DNA of 64,000 nucleotides from an uncultured Gemmatimonadales bacterium (GTDB lineage Bacteria; Gemmatimonadota; Gemmatimonadetes; Gemmatimonadales; GWC2-71-9). The translations under genes and the position numbers were made by a program. The stretch is taken from positions 128,001 through 192,000 of the forward strand of contig CAVSQW010000007.1 in assembly GCA_963730185.1 (NCBI GenBank). Direction: 5' to 3'. The notes under the pieces are model-generated. The model was not told where the DNA came from. It made no database searches and saw nothing but the letters and a program-made list of their open reading frames with translations. Each line of letters begins with the position of its first letter. Positions within the stretch are counted from its first letter, which is position 1. Below, piece by piece: positions 49,525-64,000 of this stretch.

Positions 49525-50138
49525 CCTGCCAACGCCTCCAGAAACGCCATCGTCTCCCGCGCCGGGTCGGCCGCCTGCCAGAGGGCCGAGATCGCGGCCA
49601 CGCCCCACACGCCGGTCGCGAGGAGCTCCGGCACCCGGGCGGCCGTGATCCCTCCGATGGCGACGACCCGGGGCACGGCGGCCGTGATCTGGGCGAGCCA
49701 GTCGATCCCTTGGGCGGGCCGGCCCGGATGGCTGCCGGTCTGGTAGACGTTCCCCGCCACCACGAAGTCGGCTCCCTCGGCCGCGGCCCGAGCTGCCTCC
49801 CCGGCGGTATGCACCGAGACGCCGATCCAGGCGTCGGGCGCCACCAGGCGGGCGTCGCCGGGCGACAGGTCGTCGAGCCGGAGCTGCACTCCGGCCGCCC
49901 CCGCCATCCGGGCCAGGGCCGGGTCGCCATGGGCGAAGAGCGCCGCTTCGGCCGGCCGGGCGAGCGCGCCGGCCCGATCGGTGAACCGGAGCCGCTCGGC
50001 GGCGGCGGCGTCGGGGGCCCGCACCACGAGGGCCACGCTCGAGCCGCCCGACGCGATCGCGGCCGCCCGGGCCCCGAAGTCGTCGGCCCGGCAGATGGCC
50101 GAGTCGGTCCAGGCGAACACCCGGGGGAGCGGTCTCAT
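49521..50138 (-). CDS. thiE: Thiamine phosphate synthase (ThiE/TenI family)
   Basis: IGVSVH, GADFV, TGSHP, VVAIGGIT, GVAAIS; divergent, could be TenI-like. Confidence 0.75.
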   Translation of the reverse strand: MRPLPRVFAWTDSAICRADDFGARAAAIASGGSSVALVVRAPDAAAAERLRFTDRAGALARPAEAALFAHGDPALARMAGAAGVQLRLDDLSPGDARLVAPDAWIGVSVHTAGEAARAAAEGADFVVAGNVYQTGSHPGRPAQGIDWLAQITAAVPRVVAIGGITAARVPELLATGVWGVAAISALWQAADPARETMAFLEALAG

Positions 50139-51076
50139 CCGAGTCGGGCCTCGGCCGGCAGAGGGTGGCCCCGGAGCCACTCGTCGGCCGGCATCCTGGT
50201 CCGCCCGGCCGGCTGGACCTCCCCGATCCGGACCGCCCCCGTTCCGGCGGCGACGACCAGGGCGCCGTCGGCGGCGACCAGGGTGCCGCCGACGGTGATC
50301 GGCCCGCCGGGCGTCCCGGCGCCGGCCACGACCCGGGGGCGGAAACACTTGAGCTCGAGCCCGCCTAACGAGGTCCACGCGCCCGGTACCGGATCGAAGG
50401 CCCTGATCCGGCGGGCCACCTCGTCGCCCGACCGGGTCCAGTCGATCCGAGCCGTCTCCCGACCGATCTTCGGGGCCAAGGTGGCCAGCGACGGATCCTG
50501 GGGCGTCGCCTCGGCAGCATCGTCGAACCGGTCCAGGACGTCGACCAGGGCGCCGGCGCCGAGCCGGGCGAGCCGCTCGGTGAGGTCGCCGCCGGTCTCA
50601 TCCGGGCCGATCGGGGTCGCCTCCCGGCCCAGCATCGGCCCGCTGTCCATTCCCGCGTCCATCCGCATGATGGTGACCCCCGTCTCCCGGTCTCCCGCCG
50701 CGATCGCCCACTGGATCGGGGCGGCGCCGCGATGGCGGGGCAGGAGGCTCGCGTGGACGTTGATCATCCCGTGCCGGGGGATGGCCAGGATCTCCGGCCG
50801 AAGGATGTGCCCGTAGGCGACGACCACGCCCAGGTCCGGGGTCAGGTCCCGGAGCCAGCCGGCGAACGGGTCGCCGCGGGGCCGCTCCGGTTGGGACACG
50901 GGGACGCCGGCAGTCTGGGCGCGGACCTTCACGGGGGGAGCGACGAGGGTGGAGCGGGAGCGTCCTCGGGGGCGGTCCGGCTGGGTGACCGCCGCCACGA
51001 CCGGGTGGCCGCGTTCGAGCAGGGCCTCGAGGCTCGGCACGGCGAACGCAGGCGTGCCGAAGAACACGATCCGCAT
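50135..51076 (-). CDS. fmt: Methionyl-tRNA formyltransferase
   Basis: FFGTPAFA, TQPDRPRGR, NVHASLLPRHRGAAPI, MDAGMDSG. Confidence 0.96.
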   Translation of the reverse strand: MRIVFFGTPAFAVPSLEALLERGHPVVAAVTQPDRPRGRSRSTLVAPPVKVRAQTAGVPVSQPERPRGDPFAGWLRDLTPDLGVVVAYGHILRPEILAIPRHGMINVHASLLPRHRGAAPIQWAIAAGDRETGVTIMRMDAGMDSGPMLGREATPIGPDETGGDLTERLARLGAGALVDVLDRFDDAAEATPQDPSLATLAPKIGRETARIDWTRSGDEVARRIRAFDPVPGAWTSLGGLELKCFRPRVVAGAGTPGGPITVGGTLVAADGALVVAAGTGAVRIGEVQPAGRTRMPADEWLRGHPLPAEARLG

Positions 51077-51608
51077 CAGGATCGGGCGCCGTCCTCCGGC
51101 ACGACCTTCTTCACCACCGCCTCGCCTCGATGCTCCTTCTTCCAGCGCTTGAGCAGCATCTGGCGCTTGAGCATGCTCACGTGGTCGAGGAAGAGAATCC
51201 CGTCCAGGTGGTCGATCTCGTGCTGGACCGCCCGCGCCACGTGACCGTCGAGCTCGCGCCGATACGGCTCGCCCTCGCGATCCAGGGCCTCCACCACGAT
51301 CCGGGCGGGCCGGGTCACCTCGGCGTAGAGCTCGGGAATCGAGAGGCAGCCCTCTTCGCCCCGGGAGCTGCCCTCGGCGCTGAGGATCACGGGGTTCACC
51401 ATGGCGAACCGGTCGCCGTCGATGCCCACCACCGCCACCCGCCGGGTCACCCCGACCTGATTGGCCGCGAGCCCGACGCCCTTGGCGGCGTCCATGGTCT
51501 CGAAGAGATCGTCGATGAACTGCTTGACCTCGTCATCCACCTCCGCGACGTCGTCGCTCCGGGTCCGGAGCACGGACGACCCCAGGAGGTGCAGGTCCAA
51601 CAACGACA

Positions 51609-51609
<1 letters not shown>
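51076..51609 (-). CDS. def: Peptide deformylase
   Basis: GVGLAANQVG, EGCLS, QHEIDHLDG. Confidence 0.96.
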
Positions 51610-53966
<2,357 letters not shown>

Positions 53967-54000
53967 GTCTGCCTTTCCGTGAGGCGTCCCTAAGAGGTAC

Positions 54001-54120
54001 CGTCCCTCGCTCTCCGCGTCCATCCGTCCCCGCGGTCCCGCCCCCTTCGGCCTCCCCCTCAGCCCCCGCGTCCCCCGTCGCCCCCGCTTCCATCGTCCTC
54101 GTTCCCCCGTTCCTCCGGGT
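54001..54120. repeat. Strand-asymmetric C-rich low-complexity tract with ~8-9-nt periodicity
   Basis: Repeated CCCCC runs on + strand (G5 runs on the transcribed minus strand), almost no A. Confidence 0.55.
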
Positions 54121-54130
54121 CCACCAACCG

Positions 54131-55624
54131 TCACGCGGCCGTATGGCGATACAGGTGGCGTACGCCCGGGTCACCCAGCCCGGCGTGATTGAAGGGCGCG
54201 ATCAAGCGGGCGATCTCGGCCTCGAACCCCGCGTCGTCGTCCGGGCGGCCGGCCAGCCGGGCGTCGAGCGCGGCCCCGGCCTGCCGCGCCAGCAGTCGAA
54301 CCGCGGGATCGTCCGCCAGGAAGAGCGCTCCGGTCCGGTCGCCGCCGGTCGTCCGTCGCTTCTCCCAGGTGGTGACGGCGGCGAAGAACACCAGACTGAA
54401 GGCCCGGAAGAGCGGGAACCGGCCCATCGCGCGGTAGCATCCGCCCACCAGCTCGTCGATCAGGGCCAGCTCCGCCTGGACGAGGCTCTCATAACCCGTC
54501 ATGGCTCGATCCAGGGAGGAACGCCCCCAGTGCTCGCCCAGGTCCGTGGCCAGCCGCTCGACGCCGTGCATCGTCTGGGCGATCCCCGTGCTGTGGAGCG
54601 GATCGACGAATCCGGCCGAATGGGGAAGGAGCGCCCAGGTGGGGCCGGCGGCGGGGCGGAGCCGGCGCTGGAGGCGCCCGGTCCGGCGGAGGCCCCCGGC
54701 CGGCGCTACCAGCTCCGCGCCGGCGAACTGCCGGGCGACCGACGGCAGGCGGCTGAGCAGGGCACCCCATTCCTCGCCGGGTGGCCGCCCGGGATCCAGG
54801 GGATGGCGTCGGAAGTCGAGCGCGAATCCCGCGCTGGTCACCCCGTCGTCGAACCGGAGCGTCCACATCCAGCCGCCGTCGAACACGTGGTGCAACGCCG
54901 CGCGGTCGCAGGGGAAAGGATGGTCGTCGATCCGGCCGCCGCCTCGCTCCAGCACCTCGGCCCAGGGCGGGACGCCCCGGAAGTGCCCGAACAGGGCCCG
55001 CGAGGCGGTGGTCATGGTCGCGCGCTGGTCGGCGAGCGAGAGCGGCTCCCGGAGCAGCCCGGCGTCGCCGGTGGCGTCGACCAGGAACCGGGCCGCGATC
55101 GTCACCGGCCGGTCCAGCCGGGCGCCCTCGAGACGCCAGCCGTTCGGGGCGGTCCGGGCCGCGACCTCGGTCCGGTCCAGGAACTCGACGCCCGCGTCGC
55201 GGGCTTCGTCCACCAGAAAGGCGTCCACGGCCGACCGGAGCCAGTGGGTGTCGGCCTGGTCCTCGCCGACGCTCGCGGCCACCAGCAGCTCGTTGCCGTG
55301 GGCTGGGTCGGGGACGAAGGCAGCCCCGGCCTGGTGCCCGAAGTAGCTGAACCCCCGCTTCGGGCCGCGGGTGAGGTCGGGATAGGCCCGACACCAGCTT
55401 CCGTAGCGGGTCAGCGGGGCCAGGCGGGGCAGGTCGTAGCGCCGGGCCAGGTCGCCGAGGATCAGGTCGGCGGCGGGGGTGGACGACTCACCGATGGCGA
55501 AGCGGGGGTGGTGTGCCCGGTCCAGGAGCACCACTCGTCTCCCGAGCCGGGTCAGGATCAGGGCGAGCAGGCTCCCCCCGAACCCCGAGCCGGCGATCGC
55601 GACGTCGCAGTCCAGGACCCTCAC
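54131..55624 (-). CDS. Flavin-dependent halogenase-like protein, PrnC/CtcP type
   Basis: GSGFGG FAD motif; HPRFAIGESS; GPKRGF (conserved Lys position); ALHHVFDGGWMWTLRF (WxW); HSAGFVDPLHSTG; GTG start overlaps rSAM stop. Confidence 0.85.
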   Translation of the reverse strand: MRVLDCDVAIAGSGFGGSLLALILTRLGRRVVLLDRAHHPRFAIGESSTPAADLILGDLARRYDLPRLAPLTRYGSWCRAYPDLTRGPKRGFSYFGHQAGAAFVPDPAHGNELLVAASVGEDQADTHWLRSAVDAFLVDEARDAGVEFLDRTEVAARTAPNGWRLEGARLDRPVTIAARFLVDATGDAGLLREPLSLADQRATMTTASRALFGHFRGVPPWAEVLERGGGRIDDHPFPCDRAALHHVFDGGWMWTLRFDDGVTSAGFALDFRRHPLDPGRPPGEEWGALLSRLPSVARQFAGAELVAPAGGLRRTGRLQRRLRPAAGPTWALLPHSAGFVDPLHSTGIAQTMHGVERLATDLGEHWGRSSLDRAMTGYESLVQAELALIDELVGGCYRAMGRFPLFRAFSLVFFAAVTTWEKRRTTGGDRTGALFLADDPAVRLLARQAGAALDARLAGRPDDDAGFEAEIARLIAPFNHAGLGDPGVRHLYRHTAA

Positions 55625-56568
55625 GCGCCGCAGGGCTCGCAGCGAACCGCCGGGAGGATCCGCTGGTCGAGGTTCATCCGGTGGAGCCGCTCGCGGCGGT
55701 CGGCGCGGCAGTGGGGGCAGGCGGCGACCTGCTCGAAATCCCAGAGATCCATGAAGACCCGCCCCCGGCCGAGCCCGATCCCGGCCGCCAGGGCGCGCTC
55801 GATGGCGCCGAGCGAAGGCGGCCCGGCTCGGCCCTCGCGCGCGAGCTTGGCCAGCAGTCCGCCGTCGGTCCGAGTGGGCACCATCGCGACGCACCCGACC
55901 CCCCGCTCGAACGCCCACTGGGCCGATCGAATCGCCCAGTCGACCCCTTCCTCGTCGCCGAGGAAGGGCGGGCGAAGCAGGACGAAGGCCCGAACCGCGA
56001 TGTCGCTCCGGAGCAGCCGGTCCACGGCCCGCGCGAAATCGTCCAGCGTCATCCGCTTGTTGAGGGCGGGGAGGACCTCCGGGTGGACCGTCTCGAGTCC
56101 CAGCGCCACCTCGAGGCCGGTCCCGAGCCGATCCCGAAAGGCGTCACACCGCTCGTCGGTCAATCGGGGGTGGTTCTCGACGATGACGGTCTCGAACCCG
56201 CCAACCCGCTCGACGATCGCGACGTGGTCGGCGGGCGGAATCGCGCGAGGGTCGAAGAAGTTGCCGGCGTTGTAGAGCTTGATCTGACGGGCGGGTGGCA
56301 GCACCGCGAGTGCCCGATCGAGCTGCGCCGGGATCGCGCCGACCGGCACGGTCTCGTTCGTGGTTCCGGCCCAGAGGTCGCACATCAGACAGCGGAAGGG
56401 GCACTCGCGGTTGGTGAGCAGCACCGTCGCGACGCTCACCACTTCGCCTGAGGCGGAGCGCTCCGGCTCGACGAAGAAGCCTTGGGGTCGGGTCGGGTCG
56501 ACCGGCCGCTTGGGGCCCCGGGCCGCGAGGATCTCGCGATCGGTGGCCCGGGCGACTCCCTCAGGCAT
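55621..56568 (-). CDS. Radical SAM enzyme resembling archaeal RaSEA (TIGR01210-like)
   Basis: CPFRCLMC (CxxxCxxC); IKLYNAGNFFD, IVENHP, EVALGLET, LNKRMT, AFVLLRPPFL; extra C-terminal CPHC and CEPC. Confidence 0.85.
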   Translation of the reverse strand: MPEGVARATDREILAARGPKRPVDPTRPQGFFVEPERSASGEVVSVATVLLTNRECPFRCLMCDLWAGTTNETVPVGAIPAQLDRALAVLPPARQIKLYNAGNFFDPRAIPPADHVAIVERVGGFETVIVENHPRLTDERCDAFRDRLGTGLEVALGLETVHPEVLPALNKRMTLDDFARAVDRLLRSDIAVRAFVLLRPPFLGDEEGVDWAIRSAQWAFERGVGCVAMVPTRTDGGLLAKLAREGRAGPPSLGAIERALAAGIGLGRGRVFMDLWDFEQVAACPHCRADRRERLHRMNLDQRILPAVRCEPCGA

Positions 56569-57886
56569 GGAGCGCCGCGAACGCCTTTCGGTAGCCGGAC
56601 TCGTCGGCCGGAAACAGCGCATCGAAGCCGCTCCGCCGGACGGCGCCGTGCTGGAAGCGGCGCTTCTCGAAGGCCGGCATGGCCAGACCGGTGACCGCCC
56701 GGACGCCCCGGGTGACGATCTCACCCTTGAGGGCGTAGAGCTTGTCGGGGTCGAACCCGGTGAGCTCGACGAACGGGATCCCCTCGGCCACTTCGATGAC
56801 GTTGGGCACGGCGTAGGGGCTGAACCCCTCGAACCCGAGGGCCCGGGCCGGCGCCCAGGACCGGACCTGGCCGCGGCTCTGGCCGCCCGAGTAGGTGAGC
56901 GAGTGCTTGACGGCCTCGACTCCCCAGCCCTCCTGGTAGAGCATCAAGTTGTTGAGCACGCTCCGAATGGTGAGCTCCGAGTTCTCCTCGATCGGGTAGT
57001 CCTTGAGGTTCTCGTCGCCGCCGTCCCCATCCACCAGATACCGCCAGTCGGGATACCGGGCCCGAATGCCCCGGCAGAGCGCCAGCGCCATGGTGGCGGA
57101 CTGGACGTCGAGCGGCTTGTAGTCTTCGATGACCCGGATGGCCTCGCGATAGTCGAGCGCGTCAGGCGAGACCTCGATCGGTTCCAGGAACATGCCGAGG
57201 CCCAGCGCGTCGAGAAACCGGCGGGCCTGGTCGAGGTCGGGGCCGCCGCCGTCGACGGCGAGCGTGAACGCCTTGAGCCGGGCCGGCGACTGTCCCCGGC
57301 GGAGGAGGCGGTGATAGAGGGCCAGAAAGACGGAGCCGCTGTCGATCCCGCCGGAAAAGGGCACCCCGATCGGCGCGTCGGGCTCGACGTGATCGAGCCA
57401 GCGGTCGAGCTCCCGCGCGAGCGTCGCGACGTAGGTCCAGCCGATTTCGTCGAGATCGGTGCCGAGGCGGTTCCGTTCCGGCGTGAAGTACCGGACCGGC
57501 GTGGGATTGGGGTCCGGGCACCCCACCAGGGCCAGCTCCACCACGTAGTGGGCCGGCACCATTCTGGTGTAGGACGGGTGGAACTGTCCGGCCAGCCCTT
57601 CGCTCTCCAGGAAGGCCCGGATCTCGTCGATCCGCTCGGCGATCACGAGACACGGCCCCTCCGCCCGCTTGGCGAGGAAGAAACGCATCGGGCGCCCGAT
57701 CGAGCGGGCCATCCGGACTGTGATCCCCTGCTTGTGGACCAGGGCGAAGACGCCGTCGATCTCGCGGACCTGGGTCGGGTCGCCGGAGCCGACCCGGGCG
57801 GTCGCTTCGTCCACCGACATGTTGAAGAGCGTGTTCGCAGAGGGGTCCAGCAGATTGACGAGACGTTCGACGGTCGTGGTATGCAT
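56561..57886 (-). CDS. Asparagine-synthetase-like ATP pyrophosphatase with truncated glutaminase domain
   Basis: PP-loop FSGGIDS; DGDGGDE (cf. SGEGADE); KRRFQ; N-domain keeps IDGVFALV…MARSIGRPMRF but has no N-terminal Cys. Confidence 0.85.
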   Translation of the reverse strand: MHTTTVERLVNLLDPSANTLFNMSVDEATARVGSGDPTQVREIDGVFALVHKQGITVRMARSIGRPMRFFLAKRAEGPCLVIAERIDEIRAFLESEGLAGQFHPSYTRMVPAHYVVELALVGCPDPNPTPVRYFTPERNRLGTDLDEIGWTYVATLARELDRWLDHVEPDAPIGVPFSGGIDSGSVFLALYHRLLRRGQSPARLKAFTLAVDGGGPDLDQARRFLDALGLGMFLEPIEVSPDALDYREAIRVIEDYKPLDVQSATMALALCRGIRARYPDWRYLVDGDGGDENLKDYPIEENSELTIRSVLNNLMLYQEGWGVEAVKHSLTYSGGQSRGQVRSWAPARALGFEGFSPYAVPNVIEVAEGIPFVELTGFDPDKLYALKGEIVTRGVRAVTGLAMPAFEKRRFQHGAVRRSGFDALFPADESGYRKAFAALHA

Positions 57887-57944
57887 CGATCCGGTCGGTG
57901 AGGCGTGGCTGGGGGCGGAGTCGACGAAGGTCGTGGAAAGATAG

Positions 57945-58493
57945 TCAGGGCTCCCGATCCACCGCCTGCCGCAGGAAGGCCGGCCGGACGACGGGCTCGC
58001 GGGCGACGCGAATCACGATCTCGATCTGCTCGAGCAACTCGGCCTGTTCGTGGTGGTCGCCGGGAGCAGTCGCCACCTCACTCCTGAGCGCGAGGAGATC
58101 GGACTCGCGGCGAGCCCGGTCGCCGGGGCCGGCCGGCGTACCGCGGAGGCGCTCCAGCCGACGGCGGAAGGCGGCGAAGCGGTACGACGTGCCGCCGACG
58201 GGGCTGATCAACGTCAGACCACCGGCGACGAAGGTGCCCAGGCCCACGCCGGCGAGCACGGCCCGGGTCGTGGTGAAGCCGGCGATCCCGGATCCAAACG
58301 CGGAGCCGAGCAGGCCCAGCAAGCTCACGGCGCCCGTGGCGACCAGACCGATCCCGACCAGGCCCCGCCGCTGACGGAGCCGCTCCTTCCAGCCGCCGAG
58401 CTGGCCCGCCGCCGCGATCATGCCGACCGACGATGCGAGGAGCGTCAGCCCCACGCCGATCAGCTGGCCGACCGAGCCGGTGGAGCTCGCCAT
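57945..58493 (-). CDS. Hypothetical membrane protein (about 3 TM plus a cytoplasmic helical tail)
   Basis: Three Gly-rich hydrophobic segments; fills the gap between the S9 peptidase and the Asn-synthetase-like gene. Confidence 0.6.
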   Translation of the reverse strand: MASSTGSVGQLIGVGLTLLASSVGMIAAAGQLGGWKERLRQRRGLVGIGLVATGAVSLLGLLGSAFGSGIAGFTTTRAVLAGVGLGTFVAGGLTLISPVGGTSYRFAAFRRRLERLRGTPAGPGDRARRESDLLALRSEVATAPGDHHEQAELLEQIEIVIRVAREPVVRPAFLRQAVDREP

Positions 58494-58512
58494 TGTCGGG
58501 GACGGCGGCGAC

Positions 58513-60432
58513 TCAGTGGAGCCAACGGTCGAACCAGGCGACGAACCGCCGGGTCCGGTCCAGGAGGTGCTTCTCTTCGCGGAGTCCGTGGCCTTCCCGG
58601 GGATAGACCACCAGCTCGGCCGGCACGTCGTAGCGCTTGAGCGCCCGGTAGAGCATCTGGCTCTGGGCCAGCGGGTCGGTGGTATCGTCCTCGCCCTGGA
58701 GGATCAGCGTCGGGGTGTGGGCCCGGGTGATGTAGGTCAGCGGGGAGCTCTTCCGGAACCCGTCGGGTCGCTCGTACGGGGTGCCGTAGAACCACTCGTC
58801 GTACGCCGGGCCGGCCTCGGTGCCGAACTCGGTCGCGAGGTCGCTCATCCCGGCGCCGGTCACCGCCGCCTTGAAGCGGTCGGTCTGGGTGATGGCCCAG
58901 GAGGCCATGTAGCCGCCGTAGGACCAGCCCCCGATCCCCAGCCGGCTGGGGTCGGCGACACCCCGGCGAACCAGCTCGTCCACGCCGGCCATGATGTCCT
59001 GGAAGTCGCGGCCGCCCCAGTCGGCCCGATTGGCCGCCAGGAAGGCAAACCCATAACCCGTCGACCCCCGAGGGTTCGGGTAGAACACGGCGTAGCCCTT
59101 GGCGGCGAGCAGCTGCCCCCAGCCCTCGAAGCGATCGCCCCACGCCCCGGTCGGCCCCCCGTGGACCAGCACCACCAGCGGGAGTCGGGCGTTCGGCGCC
59201 CGGTCGGCCGGCAGGAGGAGGGCGCCCTCGATCGCCTGGCCGTCGACGCTTCGGTAGCGCACGATCTCGGGCGCGATCACCGGGAGCGAATCCCAGCGGG
59301 CGTTGAGCATGGTGATCCGCCGGGCCGCGCCCGGTCCGCTCTGGCGCCAGAGCTCCGGCGCCCGGGTCGCGGTCTGTCCCACGAAGAGGAGCGACCCGTC
59401 GGCGAGCGTCACCGCGTCCGAGGGATGGGGCGACGGGGTCGGGAGCGCCGTCGAGCGGCCGCCGGTCGTCAGCCGGGCTCGCCGAACCTCGAACCCGTCG
59501 GGGTAGAGCAGGTCGAGCGTCCCGTCCTGCTCCCAGCGATAGTCCTGGACCGGCCGGTCGATCGTCCCCGCGGTGAGGTTCCGGGCCGGTCCGCCGGCGA
59601 GCGGCAGCAGGTAGAGGTCGTGCGGGACCGGACCGTCCACCCTCGCTCCCTGGTAGGAGAGCAGGGCGCCGTCGGGCGAGACCTCGAGTCCGCCGATCGG
59701 CCCGGTTGGCGCCGCCACCAGCCGGGGGATCGAATCCCGAACCCCGATCGTGTAGAGCGCCTCGGTCCAGCGGTCGCTCTCGGGATGGTCGGTGGCGATC
59801 AGGGCCAGCCGGTCGCCGCTCGGGAGCCAGACCAGGTCGCGGACGGTCCAGGGGGCCGCCGTCATCCGGTGGACCTCGCCCGAGGGCAGGTCGAGCAGCC
59901 AGAGGCTCGCGGGCCGGTCGTCCCGGTCCACCACCCGGGCGTCGTCCTTGTCCTTTCGGCGCTGCTCCTCTTCGTCGGTCGGCGGCGGGGCCGCCACGAA
60001 GGCGATCCGCCGCCCATCCGGCGCCCAGGCGAACTGCCGCACCGCCGACTTGCCCTTGGTCAGCGGTCGGGCTTCGCCGCCGTCGAGCGGCAGCAGCCAG
60101 ATCTGGGGCCGGTCCACCCGGTCCGAAAGGAACGCCAGGGAGCGCCCATCGGGCGCGAACCGGGGCGACCACTCGCTCCGGCTCGAGCTGGTGAGCTGCC
60201 TCGCGCTGTCGGCGCCCAGCTGGAAGAGGAACACGTGCTGGGGCTGATCGGTACCGGAGACCGGCTCCTGGACCACGAACGCGGCCGCCCGGCGGTCCGG
60301 CGCCAGCTCGAGGTCGCGGAGCGAGCGGCGGTCGAGGGTGATCTCGGGCGTGATCTGGGCCGACGCCGGCGCGGCGAAGACGAGGACGAGCAGCGTCTGA
60401 ACCGGGAGGAGCCGGCGGAGAGTTCGGATCAT
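58513..60432 (-). CDS. Exported S9-family (acylaminoacyl/dipeptidyl) peptidase
   Basis: Signal peptide; TolB-like WAPDG propeller repeats; HGGP, GWSYGG, GEDD, EGHG catalytic motifs. Confidence 0.93.
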   Translation of the reverse strand: MIRTLRRLLPVQTLLVLVFAAPASAQITPEITLDRRSLRDLELAPDRRAAAFVVQEPVSGTDQPQHVFLFQLGADSARQLTSSSRSEWSPRFAPDGRSLAFLSDRVDRPQIWLLPLDGGEARPLTKGKSAVRQFAWAPDGRRIAFVAAPPPTDEEEQRRKDKDDARVVDRDDRPASLWLLDLPSGEVHRMTAAPWTVRDLVWLPSGDRLALIATDHPESDRWTEALYTIGVRDSIPRLVAAPTGPIGGLEVSPDGALLSYQGARVDGPVPHDLYLLPLAGGPARNLTAGTIDRPVQDYRWEQDGTLDLLYPDGFEVRRARLTTGGRSTALPTPSPHPSDAVTLADGSLLFVGQTATRAPELWRQSGPGAARRITMLNARWDSLPVIAPEIVRYRSVDGQAIEGALLLPADRAPNARLPLVVLVHGGPTGAWGDRFEGWGQLLAAKGYAVFYPNPRGSTGYGFAFLAANRADWGGRDFQDIMAGVDELVRRGVADPSRLGIGGWSYGGYMASWAITQTDRFKAAVTGAGMSDLATEFGTEAGPAYDEWFYGTPYERPDGFRKSSPLTYITRAHTPTLILQGEDDTTDPLAQSQMLYRALKRYDVPAELVVYPREGHGLREEKHLLDRTRRFVAWFDRWLH

Positions 60433-60684
60433 GAGAGGACCATCACGCCCGCCGGGCTCGACGGGTCAGAAGGAGGTGGAGACGCCCAGGCTTCCGCGAT
60501 TCCCGACGTGAACCGGTCGGGACCGGGCCTCGGCCAAGCCGGGGGCCGTGCCGCCGGCCGGAACCCGAAGCCGAGGGCGACCGCCAGGAGCGCCAACCCG
60601 ATCAGCCGCTTCGACGGGAGCTCCCCGGAATGGGGAGCAAGGTCGAAGGTAGGGCGCCGGCGCGCCGCGGGCCAGAGGCGCGGG

Positions 60685-61151
60685 CTAGGGCGGGGACCGA
60701 TCGGTCGAGTTGGGAGCGTCGAGTCGGTAGCAGGGGTGCCGGAGTCCGGTCGGCGGATAGAGCTCGTCGTGGGTGGGGCGGAATCCCAGCCGTTCGAGCC
60801 GCCGCTTCGACGGAGCGTTGTCGGGGTGATGGCCGGCGAAGAGGAACCGGGCCCCGAGGGTCTCGAAGGCGTGGGCGATCGTGGCCCCCGCGGGCGGAGT
60901 CCGGCCGCCCCGACGAGGTCGCCGGTGGGTCGGAGGAAGACGGGCCAGTACTGCACCCCGTGAGACGTCGCCATCGCGATCTCGGCGGCGAGCCGCGCCG
61001 CGACCTCGGCCGCCGACCATGGGCCGCCGATCAGCCGGGCGACCTCGGGGTCGCCCCAGAGCGCCAGCGCCAGGTCGAGGTCGGTTCTCCGCCAGCGGCC
61101 GAAGCCGAGCCGGGGTGTGGTGAGCCACCAGTCGGACACCGCTCCGCTCAA
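60685..61151 (-). pseudogene. RimJ/RimL-type GNAT acetyltransferase disrupted by an internal deletion and frameshift near 60890
   Basis: N-half LTTPRLGFGRW…LWGDPEV…GAAGLRP in one frame; C-half ATIAHAFETLG…AGHHPDNAPSKRRLERLGF in another; the intervening E.G…WG.G.ATE segment is absent. Confidence 0.75.
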
Positions 61152-62674
61152 GCGACCCGGAAGACGCCGACTCTCCCGGCCCGGCCCCGGAGCTCCAGGT
61201 CGCCGACCCGGGCCAGCGGGGGTGGGGCGGTCAGCGCCGCCGCCAGGGTCTCCGACACCAGAATCTCGCCCGGGTCGGCCCGTCCGCAGAGCCGGGAGGC
61301 GACGTTGACGGTGTCGCCTAACACGCTGTACTCGAGCCGGCGCTCGCTCCCGAGGTAGCCGGCGAAGACGTCGCCGGTGGCGAGCCCGATCCCAATCGCG
61401 ATCGGGGGCCGGGTCCCGGTCCAGCGCCGGTTGAGCTCCCCGACCCGCGCCTGCATCTGCTGCGCGGCCGCCAGGGCGCGGTCGGCGTCGTCGGGCTCGG
61501 TCAGGGGCGCGCCCCAGACCGCCATCAGGGCGTCGCCGATGAACTTGTCGAGCGTGCCGCCGTGGTCGAAGACCAGATCCACCATCTCGGTGAAGTAGTC
61601 GGTCAGGAGCGCGGCGACCTCTTCGGGGCGGAGCCGCTCGGCCAGGGGCGTGAAGCCCCGGATGTCGGCGAAGAGCACTGTGGCCACCCGCCGCTCACCG
61701 CCCAGGGCCACCGCGTCGGTCTGGCGGGCGATCCGCTCGGCCACGTTGGGGGCGAAGAACCGCTCGAAGTTCGCCCTCACCTGGGCCTCGCGATGCATCG
61801 CCTCGGCGTAGCGGATCTTGCCGATCGCCACGGCCGCGATCCCGCCGAAGGCGAAGAGCAGGGTCGCCTCCTCCTCGGTGAAGCCCCGGGTGGCGGTCAG
61901 CGAGTCGGCGTAGAGCACGCCGAGGACCTGGTCTTCGGACCCAAGGAGAGGGGTCGCGATCGCGCTCCGGACGCTCTGGAGCATCACCGAGCCGCTTCGG
62001 AGCCGCTCGTCCGCGGCCGCGTTGTCGGTGATGATCGGGGCCCGGTCGTCCACCGTGCGCTGGGCGATCGAGCGGGGCACCCGCATCCCGGCCGGATCGC
62101 TGACCCGGCTCCGGGAGAGCGCCGGGACCAGCTCGCCGGAGCGGGCGTCGAGCAGGAGGAGGGACACCCGGTCGACGGGCAGGAGGTCGAAGGTGCCCTC
62201 CACCACGGCGGCGATCAGCGAGTCGAGCTCGAACTCGCCCGAGAGGCGCTTGGCCAGATCGAGGAGCCGAGCCAACCGCTCGGCGTGCGGTCCCGGCGGC
62301 GCGGTCGCCGTCCCGACCGGCGCGAAGCCGCGACCCACGGACACGGCCCGGACCACGGTCTCCGCGGTGCCCGGGTCCAAAGGCGCGGGGGTGCCGCCCT
62401 CGACCCGGTAGCTCACCTTCCCGAAGGTCACCGTGTCGGTCGGAGTCAGGAGGCCCTCCACGATCCGGGCGCCGTTGATCGCGGTCCCGTTGGAGCTCTC
62501 CAGGTCGCGGACCCGGACCCCGGCCGGGGTAACCCGGAGCTCGGCGTGCCGGCGGGAGACGGTGACGTCGGGGACGCTCAGGTCGCTGGCGGCCGAGCGT
62601 CCGACCACCACCGCCCGATCGTCGGGGAGGATCAGCTCGTGCTCATGGCCGAGACCGTGGAGTCGCCAGGACAT
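61148..62674 (-). CDS. FHA-GAF-class III adenylate/guanylate cyclase
   Basis: FHA (VGR, VSRRHA, DLESSNGT); GAF (RSAIATPL…GVLYADS); cyclase (LFADIRGFT, DKFIGDALMA, GDTVNVASRL). Confidence 0.93.
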   Translation of the reverse strand: MSWRLHGLGHEHELILPDDRAVVVGRSAASDLSVPDVTVSRRHAELRVTPAGVRVRDLESSNGTAINGARIVEGLLTPTDTVTFGKVSYRVEGGTPAPLDPGTAETVVRAVSVGRGFAPVGTATAPPGPHAERLARLLDLAKRLSGEFELDSLIAAVVEGTFDLLPVDRVSLLLLDARSGELVPALSRSRVSDPAGMRVPRSIAQRTVDDRAPIITDNAAADERLRSGSVMLQSVRSAIATPLLGSEDQVLGVLYADSLTATRGFTEEEATLLFAFGGIAAVAIGKIRYAEAMHREAQVRANFERFFAPNVAERIARQTDAVALGGERRVATVLFADIRGFTPLAERLRPEEVAALLTDYFTEMVDLVFDHGGTLDKFIGDALMAVWGAPLTEPDDADRALAAAQQMQARVGELNRRWTGTRPPIAIGIGLATGDVFAGYLGSERRLEYSVLGDTVNVASRLCGRADPGEILVSETLAAALTAPPPLARVGDLELRGRAGRVGVFRVA

Positions 62675-62684
62675 CGGGCCGGAC

Positions 62685-63281
62685 CTAGCGGGGGGCCGCC
62701 ACGACGTACGCGCCGGGGCCCGGCACGGCGGCCTCGAGGAGGTCCGAGCCGGGGCGCTGGCTGGGAAGGAAGACCACCCGGCCGTCGGGGTCGACCCGCC
62801 CGATCAGGAGCACCTGCTCGAAGGCCAGGTCGCTGCCGTAGCGCTTGCGGGCGCCTTCGGAGGCCGCGAAATGGAAGCCGTAGCTGAAGGTTACCGTCGC
62901 GCCGGCGGCCAGCTGCCCGTCGGTCTCGAGCGTGACGCCGTAGACTCCGGGGCGGGGGCGGACCGCCACGTGGGTCGAATCGCGTCCGGGCGGTGGGGTC
63001 AGGCTGGCGGCCGGGATGGTCACCTTGGCGAAGAGGCTGTTGTCGGGCGCGCCGCGCCGCATGATGATCGTCCGGCCTTCCCCGGCGGGCACCGCCACCA
63101 CCGTGTCCTCGGGCAGGACTCCGCTCGACTCCAGGATGAACACCCCCGCGAGGTCGGTCGGCGGCGGCAGCCGGGTGCCCGGGGTCCCCGCGCCGGCCGC
63201 GGCGGCCCCACCGCCACCACCGCACCCCGCGAGCGTCGCGGCGAACAGCAGGGCAGCCAGCACGGGCGCGCGCTCTGACAT
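62685..63281 (-). CDS. Hypothetical lipoprotein
   Basis: MSERAPVLAALLFAATLAGC lipobox followed by a beta-rich domain. Confidence 0.75.
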   Translation of the reverse strand: MSERAPVLAALLFAATLAGCGGGGGAAAAGAGTPGTRLPPPTDLAGVFILESSGVLPEDTVVAVPAGEGRTIIMRRGAPDNSLFAKVTIPAASLTPPPGRDSTHVAVRPRPGVYGVTLETDGQLAAGATVTFSYGFHFAASEGARKRYGSDLAFEQVLLIGRVDPDGRVVFLPSQRPGSDLLEAAVPGPGAYVVAAPR

Positions 63282-63422
63282 CGGCTCCGTCTCGTCGGGC
63301 GAAGGTGGGCCGGCTCCCGGAGCCGGCATGGCGGACGTCCAAGTTTCGACCGTTCCGGCGGCGGAGCGCAATGGCGCGGCCGGCCGGCCGGGCGCGCGGT
63401 CGGCCGGTGTAGTTTCCGGACG

Positions 63423-64000
63423 ATGCGTTCGCGCTGGCTTGCCCTTGCTCCGCTGGTGGTGCCCGCCGCCCTGGCGGGCCTCCAGCCGGCCGCCTTGGCG
63501 GCCCAGCAGCCGCCCGCCCTGCCGGCGCGGTCGCTGGCCACCGACTCCGCGCCGCCGGCCATCGTCACCCTCGCGATCGCCCGGCGCCAGGTCGAGACGG
63601 ACTCCTCCTTGCGGGCCTGGCGGGCCCGAGCCCGCGGGGTGGTGACCTTTCTGGCCGAATACGGGACTGGTCCCAGCATGACCACCCGGCTGGTCAAGGC
63701 CGACGAGCTCGATGTCGACGTCTACTGGGAAGGCCGGGGCCGGAGTCGCCAGGTGATCCGCGCCTGGCGCGACACCACCTTCCTCCCCACCGGGATGGGC
63801 TATCACCGCGACCACCTGGCCATCGTCACCGACGACTTCGGCCCCGTGATCCGGGTCGGCGAGGGCGACGAGGTCGCGGACGCCATCCATCCGCTCGCGC
63901 CCGCGGGCCCCGCGCACTACACCTACGCCGTTCGCGACACCACCACGGTCCGCACCTCGACCGGAGTGCTGGAGGTGGTCGCGGTCGACGTGCGCCCCCG
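63423..64000 (+). CDS. 5' part of an exported/outer-membrane protein running off the window
   Basis: MRSRWLALAPLVVPAALAG… signal peptide; frame open to the window end (…YHRDHLAIVTDDFGPVIRVGEGDEV…HPLAP…); absent from the ORF track because it has no stop. Confidence 0.75.
   Translation, partial: MRSRWLALAPLVVPAALAGLQPAALAAQQPPALPARSLATDSAPPAIVTLAIARRQVETDSSLRAWRARARGVVTFLAEYGTGPSMTTRLVKADELDVDVYWEGRGRSRQVIRAWRDTTFLPTGMGYHRDHLAIVTDDFGPVIRVGEGDEVADAIHPLAPAGPAHYTYAVRDTTTVRTSTGVLEVVAVDVRP

Follow-up and report, generated by a model that had tools for sequence, protein, structure and literature searches.

An asparagine-synthetase-fold ligase without a glutaminase cysteine and a RaSEA-like radical SAM enzyme form a widespread bacterial unit: a possible nitrogen relay

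Introduction

What would an asparagine-synthetase (AS)-like protein do when it lacks the N-terminal cysteine (Cys1) needed to hydrolyze glutamine, and why should its gene be tied to one for a radical S-adenosylmethionine (SAM) enzyme (rSAM) resembling RaSEA, the partner of ArcS in archaeosine synthesis? The question is raised by a module at positions 54131-57886 of a stretch of 64,000 nucleotides (nt) from an uncultured Gemmatimonadales bacterium (contig CAVSQW010000007.1, positions 128,001-192,000), which as a whole is called the window below and provides its numbering. A first-pass annotation had proposed that the ligase couples an amine such as lysine to a carboxylate and that the rSAM then trims it, giving an amidation relay analogous to ArcS/RaSEA. 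Our analysis shows that the ligase-rSAM pathway is real and widespread, and its chemistry, which we infer from characterized relatives, is tentatively best described as an attach-then-trim relay with a donor other than glutamine.

Results and Discussion

Ligase and Radical SAM Enzyme Behave as One Unit

At least 575 stretches in the collection of species-level genomes carry the ligase; they belong to Planctomycetota, Verrucomicrobiota, Acidobacteriota, Gemmatimonadota, and Bacteroidota/Rhodothermales. At 80 ligase loci, which represent at least five phyla, the ligase was adjoined by both the rSAM and a halogenase gene in 39 cases and by the rSAM alone in 12, and neither was nearby in 29 (four of these being incomplete stretches). 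For 25 of the 29, the rSAM was encoded elsewhere in the genome, at 36-59% identity and often amid unrelated housekeeping genes, bringing its presence to 76 of the 80 ligase genomes. The pairwise identities of the two proteins also correlate when their genes are unlinked (rho 0.53, 23 genomes).

Genome panels gave the same picture. Ligase and rSAM occurred in an identical set of 17 among 201 genomes of the window's phylum, in an identical set of three among 301 Verrucomicrobiota (one of the three being the chosen search centre), and in the same six of 41 near relatives, a panel that overlaps the first. None of the three panels contained a genome with one gene and not the other; relatives within a panel are not independent, and no p-value is given. 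The module is patchy, being present in 8% and 1% of the genomes of the 201- and 301-genome panels. Taken together, these observations support ligase and rSAM behaving as one functional unit, and the identical presence sets argue against a ligase working independently of the rSAM, which the first-pass annotation had named among the outcomes that would refute its proposal. Copies are present in cultured strains, namely, Novipirellula rosea (L074), Maioricimonas (L053), and Acidobacteriaceae KBS 96 (L065). Database labels are often wrong, with the ligase named as a glutamine-hydrolyzing asparagine synthase and the rSAM as archaeosine synthase beta.

The three genes in the window overlap stop to start, ligase and rSAM by 8 nt and rSAM and halogenase by 4 nt (Table 1), and Pfam assigns them to Asn_synthase, Radical_SAM, and Trp_halogenase, respectively. 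The two genes first proposed as a unit are both real, and the overlapping halogenase had been overlooked. No further in-frame ATG, GTG, or TTG was found upstream in the ligase open reading frame (ORF). The rSAM most likely starts at the ATG at 56568, an alternative longer GTG frame from 56724 sitting within the ligase, and the halogenase starts with a GTG that overlaps the rSAM stop. The window's genome holds no close paralogues of the three, and an Rfam scan of window positions 50000-64000 gave no match.

Table 1. Positions of the module genes and of two diagnostic motifs in the window.
Feature	Position	Strand	Basis	Role
Cys1-less asparagine-synthetase-fold ligase, very likely ATP-dependent, 441 amino acids	56561..57886	-	PF00733 E 9e-13, fold, adenylation motifs	Core partner 1
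Ligase PP-loop FSGGIDS, residues 177-183	57338..57358	-	Aligns to SGGLDS of AsnB and ASNS	
RaSEA/QueL-like radical SAM enzyme, 315 amino acids, C-terminal CxxC...CxxC	55621..56568	-	PF04055, TIGR01210 below cut-off	Core partner 2
rSAM CxxxCxxC [4Fe-4S] motif, C56/C60/C63	56380..56403	-	Invariant in 77 family members	
Predicted PltM/CtcP-type flavin-dependent phenol halogenase, 497 amino acids	54131..55624	-	Profile match to PltM and CtcP	Frequent, optional third gene

The Ligase Lacks the Cys1 Strand and Keeps Its Adenylation Site

The ligase begins with MHTTT, and a cysteine at position 2 is present in none of 119 close homologues (median length 442). In its AlphaFold model (predicted local distance difference test 87), residues 3-7 align with residues ~37-44 of AsnB, human ASNS, and beta-lactam synthetase (Z ~25). 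Since the alignment starts that far into the relatives, the glutaminase domain physically lacks its first ~36-40 residues, the Cys1 strand among them. All three observations bear out the earlier description of a ligase without Cys1 that keeps only the distal part of the glutaminase domain, and its prediction that glutamine is not used holds for the Cys1 route.

The adenylation site is, on its side, intact. Beta-lactam synthetase was the top Foldseek match of the model, and AsnB, human ASNS, and CarA were also matched over the whole length (E 1e-11; Z 20-25). The TIGR01536 score of the protein is 39 bits against a cut-off of 267. The motifs FSGGxDS, EDYK, and GDGGDEN and the residue K408 are kept at 98-100% in 85 sequences, in which the PP-loop residues are 99-100% conserved, bar I/V at 181. 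K408 is presumably the equivalent of K449 of AsnB and K443 of beta-lactam synthetase. The protein thus has every feature expected of an AS-like adenylating ligase (AS fold, PP-loop SGGxDS, GxGxDE acidic motif, and late Lys) and lacks the Cys1 and whole class II glutaminase domain of an AsnB-type enzyme. Because the Cys1 strand is absent and the synthetase site intact, the protein very likely works as an adenylating, ATP-dependent ligase without hydrolyzing glutamine by the Cys1 route, and it is therefore left with ammonia, an external amine, or an internal amine. The reactions reported for AS-like enzymes include amidation, lactam closure, hydrazine and hydroxylamine transfer, and nitrile formation (PMC13622209, PMC13060819); PesC is described as taking free ammonia to make a nitrile (PMC13060819). 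Matches in the ESM Atlas were unnamed clusters of the family itself and further AS-like clusters, nothing else, and family members alone made up the best 150 matches of a search of 50% representatives.

The Radical SAM Enzyme Branches Separately within the RaSEA-Like Group

Among known families, TIGR01210 (RaSEA) matched the window rSAM best, at 89.1 bits against a cut-off of 212. TIGR01210 matched all 77 members of the rSAM family (best E 1.5e-36), and the MnmL family matched 57 of them. For comparison, RaSEA candidates were pulled from metagenomes by a sequence motif; 68 of 119 were long enough and 42 were scanned, all 42 scoring above the cut-off (263-455 bits, E 4e-78 or better). Aligned by hhalign, the rSAM family profile and a profile of 29 verified RaSEA matched with probability 100 (E 1e-47, 293 columns, 26% identity). 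Judged by these profiles, the full-length resemblance to RaSEA is real and far beyond chance. It takes in the CxxxCxxC motif and the C-terminal four-cysteine motif, with C284/C287/C310/C313 83-88% conserved among family members and 97-100% among RaSEA. The only significant Protein Data Bank (PDB) match of the rSAM family profile was QueL 6P78 (E 3e-8 over 140 profile positions), which the RaSEA profile matches more strongly (E 5e-15). QueL was also the nearest solved structure to the rSAM model (Z 17.6, root-mean-square deviation 3.2, 217 aligned residues, 15% identity). No rSAM match was found in the phage collection. Prediction of a ligase-rSAM complex scored 0.00 with the verdict "no answer" and is used neither for nor against the pairing.

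The block-by-block match to RaSEA on which the first-pass annotation had relied is not specific to RaSEA. All five blocks are present, and most of them also occur in QueL or MnmL/YhcC: NSGSFF, xEAH, GIET, and LNK align to QueL as well, and GL[EQ], N[KR], and P201 (the proline of LLRPP) are present in the TIGR01212 outgroup. In radical SAM barrels, such blocks are largely SAM-binding motifs. As these blocks are found in the glycine-trimming MnmL/YhcC or the queuine-trimming QueL, they give no pointer to lysine, contrary to what had been suggested. K97 is 100% conserved in the rSAM family and in RaSEA and is not so conserved in the actinobacterial, Firmicute, and TIGR01212 groups or in QueL, and it could hold an amino-acid carboxylate. 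Lysine may be slightly favoured by K97 and by RaSEA being the nearest characterized family. Since the donor differs among the relatives, it is a mere candidate, and we regard lysine as the donor as doubtful.

Phylogeny, which had been named as a check on the analogy, gave a distinct RaSEA-like clade. In a quick tree of 93 sequences rooted on three TIGR01212 proteins, the rSAM family formed one clade (support 99) outside both an actinobacterial RaSEA-like group (100) and RaSEA, a grouping (98) that took in two long Firmicute branches. A more careful tree was built from 52 of these rows, leaving out the two Firmicute ones; in it, the family was again one clade (100/100) and joined the actinobacterial group (98/98) amid weakly supported RaSEA branches; the long TIGR01212 outgroup branch fell within RaSEA with weak support, making the root unstable. 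QueL sequences were not included in the trees. Approximately unbiased (AU) tests rejected neither "RaSEA alone" (p-AU 0.27) nor "RaSEA + rSAM family" (p-AU 0.28), and both arrangements are compatible with the alignment. On present sequences, the rSAM family branches separately within the RaSEA-like group, either as the sister of RaSEA or as an offshoot of it, and by score, partner, and motif it is not a RaSEA. Of the analogy to ArcS/RaSEA, membership in the group is supported and identity as a RaSEA is not, with 89 bits against 212, a clade of its own, and a genome in which ArcS was not found: a search of the window's genome (82% complete) with NF040592 matched Tgt alone, at 29.7 bits against 440.

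A Halogenase Is a Frequent Third Member

The profile of the third gene's family matched PltM, the phloroglucinol halogenase (E 6e-81), and CtcP, the tetracycline 7-halogenase (E 2e-78), ahead of every other PDB entry by ~40 orders of magnitude (next match 1e-40). The match spans profile positions 3-422 of 497, leaving the substrate-defining C-terminal region unmatched. K89, which aligns with PltM K87, is invariant, as are W252, S345, and G347, and W254 is kept in at least 90% of 38 sequences; an Arg takes the place of the Pro in WxWxIP here. Equivalents of PltM P48 and F90 are kept in the window halogenase. The features of a PltM/CtcP-type flavin-dependent halogenase are present, namely, GxGxxG, the catalytic Lys, and the WxW(x)xP-type and FxxPxxSxG motifs. 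In PltM, K87 is reported as required for activity, the Ala mutant being inactive, and the enzyme as chlorinating, brominating, and iodinating phenols and anilines and acting on free phenols (PMC6424973). Polyketide genes, which would recall PltM and CtcP, are not among the recurrent neighbours of the module. The family resemblance points to an aromatic small molecule and to the halogenase as a common tailoring step; the gene is also QhpG-like, and its product may be a hydroxylase rather than a halogenase.

This enzyme is not an obligate partner. Beyond the adjacent copies, it was found in 27 of 41 genomes lacking one nearby (some matches partial), hence in 66 of 80 overall, and was not found in the other 14. 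In all five ligase- and rSAM-containing genomes that were retested, the family profile gave only distant halogenases or none; the 14 and the five alike are drafts of unstated completeness. Within the window's phylum, it was present in 16 of the 17 genomes with ligase and rSAM; in the 17th, the contig ends inside the rSAM.

A Tentative Nitrogen Relay and Its Alternatives

The best reading of the module is an attach-then-trim nitrogen relay, because the removal of a carbon group from nitrogen is common to RaSEA, MnmL/YhcC, and QueL; we hold it tentatively, with slightly more chance of its being wrong than right. RaSEA is reported to take the lysine carbon skeleton off preQ0-Lys to give G+ (PMC11298593). 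YhcC/MnmL turns cmnm5s2U into nm5s2U in vitro, removing the carboxymethyl that MnmEG installs from glycine (bioRxiv 10.64898/2026.05.18.725915), and queuine lyase is described as forming preQ1 out of queuine (PMC7694415).

The folds, motifs, coupling, and family placement established above would be accommodated by a scheme whose reactions, step order, and donor we infer. Ligase and rSAM would take successive steps on one small-molecule intermediate. The ligase would adenylate a carboxylate or an amide/carbonyl oxygen and couple an organic amine, most likely an amino acid as no glutaminase cysteine is available. By the example of its relatives, the rSAM would then abstract a hydrogen from the attached group and cut the C-N bond, the nitrogen staying as an amide, amidine, or amine. 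Optionally, the PltM-type halogenase might act on an electron-rich aromatic ring of the product or of a precursor. The substrate is probably a small molecule, not tRNA. On chemical reasoning, radical elimination should be easier from an amidine, formed via an AMP-imidate in the manner of PesC or QueC, than from a plain amide. Of the relay as first proposed, the coupling of the two genes, the glutaminase-less ligase, and the RaSEA-like group are retained; the quoted blocks do not indicate lysine, and the order, donor, and acceptor are conjectural.

Several points weigh against this scheme. By the same reasoning, a carboxamide would be a poorer leaving group than the amidine of RaSEA, and AS-like enzymes such as PesC can accept free ammonia (PMC13060819), which would make a relay unnecessary. 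No conserved transporter or enzyme indicating lysine was found among the neighbours at 81 loci. Elp3, with a different chemistry, came first by Foldseek E-value for the rSAM, and its Z is level with that of QueL (16.7 vs 17.6), so that the functional bracket is not closed. Five family-invariant residues (N100, H133, R233, D274, and W276) are unlike those of RaSEA; at the first two, RaSEA has T and R, and QueL has the same residues as the family. As for the coupling, the rSAM was not found in four of the 29 draft genomes without an adjacent copy, and the identity correlation, taken without a housekeeping control, may reflect shared descent.

Some of these points feed the strongest alternative, in which the pathway is the same and the ligase uses free ammonia, giving an amide, or a nitrile as PesC and QueC do, while the rSAM does other radical chemistry, for example, C-C bond formation or a rearrangement, on the halogenated aromatic product. 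Besides the precedent of PesC, the fold of the rSAM being as close to Elp3 as to QueL, its pocket residues unlike those of RaSEA, and the varied biosynthetic clusters in which other bacterial RaSEA-like genes lie speak for it. This is nevertheless unlikely as it leaves unexplained why the ligase travels strictly with one rSAM clade, and as sequence profiles place RaSEA, MnmL, and QueL far above Elp3.

The order could also be reversed, the rSAM, like QueL, unmasking an amine before the ligase acylates it or closes a lactam in the manner of beta-lactam synthetase or CarA. The best-known Cys1-less AS-fold enzymes close rings internally, and the top Foldseek matches of the ligase are such ring closers; QueL, with N100 and H133 in common, is the closest solved structure to the rSAM. 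We consider this order rather unlikely, the rSAM being far nearer RaSEA over its full length, including the four C-terminal cysteines that lie past the QueL-aligned region. No conserved importer of a precursor was seen either, ABC transporter genes being present in 5-9 of the 81 loci.

A third alternative, modification of a peptide or protein, or a cofactor built on a CRTAC1/UnbV propeller or an UnbU-like membrane protein, draws on the neighbours. CRTAC1/ASPIC-UnbV propeller genes lie near 20 of the 80 loci, and an RnfD-like (UnbU-like) membrane protein near 11, ten of them in Acidobacteriota. One genome (G017) has a six-gene operon of TPR-CRTAC1, CRTAC1/UnbV, UnbU-like, ligase, rSAM, and halogenase, and another (G200) the last five in the same order. 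In the window's genome, the CRTAC1/UnbV and UnbU-like genes are on a separate contig (C9, ~366-372 kb), and across its phylum UnbU-like was present in 14 of 17 ligase-positive vs 12 of 184 ligase-negative genomes. A predicted protein of 896 amino acids (P0364) joins a family rSAM, a signal-peptide-like stretch, and a CRTAC1/UnbV domain, either as a true fusion or through a lost stop codon. AS-like enzymes are moreover reported to act on short peptides overlooked by annotation (PMC13622209, PMC13060819). Still, UnbU-like was found in just 15 of the 50 genomes searched among the 80, which belong to other phyla, and neither it nor a close UnbV orthologue was found in G171, a single-contig genome that has the trio. 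These counts rule out UnbV and UnbU as obligate partners; their link to the module is real but optional. No conserved small ORF emerged from 2707 screened within 1.2 kb of the module at the 80 loci, a screen that a distant or very short precursor would escape, and the substrates given for PltM are free phenols (PMC6424973). Modification of a peptide or protein is thus improbable.

More speculatively, the product of the proposed relay may serve UnbV/UnbU-like envelope proteins in some lineages. In its fullest form, the module would be an ATP-driven counterpart of ArcS/RaSEA with an unrelated ligase, which would adenylate the oxygen of an amide or ring carbonyl; attack by lysine or another amino acid would then give an N-alkyl amidine that the rSAM trims, yielding a halogenated aromatic cofactor or signal for these proteins. 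That is a long shot; if true, no such nitrogen relay would have been seen before outside tRNA. UnbV and UnbU belong to the three genes of the enediyne cassette that are still unexplained, and the link gives a handle on these proteins of enediyne clusters. PMC9992847 describes three conserved cassette genes of unknown function under other names than UnbV and UnbU.

Modification of a bacterial tRNA or 7-deazaguanine is very unlikely. In its favour, tRNA bases are the substrates of all three characterized relatives, tgt is found ~1 kb beyond the halogenase (a single gene intervenes), and QueC is present in 5/5 module genomes tested. Against it, tgt is in none of the 80 related loci, ArcS was not found in the window's genome, the module is patchy, most control genomes have QueC too, the two proteins of the pair are acidic (median isoelectric points 5.8 for the ligase and 6.2 for the rSAM, though RaSEA likewise), and the ligase fold is nearer beta-lactam synthetase than TilS/TtcA-type enzymes (Z 25 vs 10).

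Comparison with Known Systems

The module recalls the ArcS-RaSEA system of Euryarchaeota in having an rSAM-type enzyme with an obligate partner gene, and the two rSAM-type enzymes have in common CxxxCxxC, Q82, K97, F104, D106, E131, GLE, K171, P251, and the four C-terminal cysteines. The window rSAM is, however, only 20-28% identical to the 29 verified RaSEA and lacks RaSEA W254 and RGxHN, the latter being the retrieval motif, so that its conservation in the RaSEA set is circular. Its partner is an AS-fold ligase, usually with a halogenase, instead of the TGT-fold ArcS. ArcS of T. kodakarensis is itself described as not using ammonia, Asn, or Gln (PMC11298593).

QueL and MnmL/YtqA/YhcC belong to the same wider radical SAM group and strip a carbon group from nitrogen, but QueL (251 amino acids) aligns to residues 27-278 of the rSAM model only, and the TIGR01212 proteins (MnmL/YtqA/YhcC) are 17-18% identical to the rSAM. 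Both act on queuine or tRNA, with no AS-fold ligase pairing described in the papers cited. On the ligase side, beta-lactam synthetase, CarA, AsnB, PesC, FzmA, and the lasso cyclases share both the two-domain fold (Z 20-25) and the adenylation motifs. The glutaminase cysteine is missing from beta-lactam synthetase, CarA, and the lasso cyclases as well. The window ligase differs from these enzymes in its 13-19% identity, its ~40 missing N-terminal residues, and its strict tie to an rSAM, and the module differs from those of lasso cyclase, PesC, and FzmA, which work on ribosomally synthesized peptides, in the lack of a conserved precursor peptide in the small-ORF screen above.

The proposed relay would thus follow a logic similar to that of ArcS/RaSEA and MnmEG/MnmL with an unrelated ATP-dependent first enzyme, probably not on tRNA. 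No description of the ligase-rSAM pair was found in the literature searched, most subscription journals and preprint supplements lying outside its scope. The characterized members of the rSAM group that were checked work on tRNA bases, and the ligase-tied bacterial branch would bring the scheme of attaching an amino acid, trimming it, and retaining its nitrogen to the biosynthesis of small molecules. As the unit has only two or three genes, all for soluble proteins, and occurs in cultured hosts, it is directly testable.

Other Neighbours and Related Genes

The other genes around the module in the window are not members of it, as tgt, a cupredoxin-like lipoprotein, an upstream membrane protein, and an S9 peptidase are in 0/80 related loci. 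The tgt gene (51935-53107, minus strand) has a short low-complexity insertion of 13 protein letters. The probable lipoprotein (53130-54020, minus strand), for which no convincing Pfam or NCBIfam match was found, has two repeats resembling type-1 copper cupredoxins (His...Cys-x-His-x-Met, by eye). An iodotyrosine deiodinase was likewise rejected as a member, being present in two of five module-positive vs four of five module-negative genomes and in none of the 80 loci. Its gene in the window's genome (G000 contig C9, L113:14275-14967; E 4e-74 to 5KO7) adjoins the CRTAC1/UnbU genes there and in G010. At five Acidobacteriota loci (L033, L038, L051, L057, and L065), genes for an NMT1/SsuA-type ABC transporter and a CopZ-like metal-binding protein adjoin the module.

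Other bacterial RaSEA-like genes were seen as well. A second, mainly actinobacterial family (L112:9905-16563 on plasmid pFRL5 of Streptomyces sp. F8; P0392-P0512) scores 159-212 bits with TIGR01210, nearer than the window rSAM. On pFRL5, the gene is followed by P450, SHMT-like, GT9, and carbamoyltransferase genes, with no AS-fold ligase annotated in the stretch read. A Bacillus cereus plasmid (L254:19-21123) has a RaSEA-like rSAM in a cluster resembling those for fatty acids or type II polyketides, together with a QueC-like enzyme, two adenylate-forming enzymes, acyl carrier proteins, and a glutamine-hydrolyzing AsnB, and there are similar matches on B. thuringiensis plasmids. Finally, pSOL1 of Clostridium acetobutylicum (L253:8872-10023) carries a stand-alone RaSEA-like rSAM ~5 kb from the sol operon.

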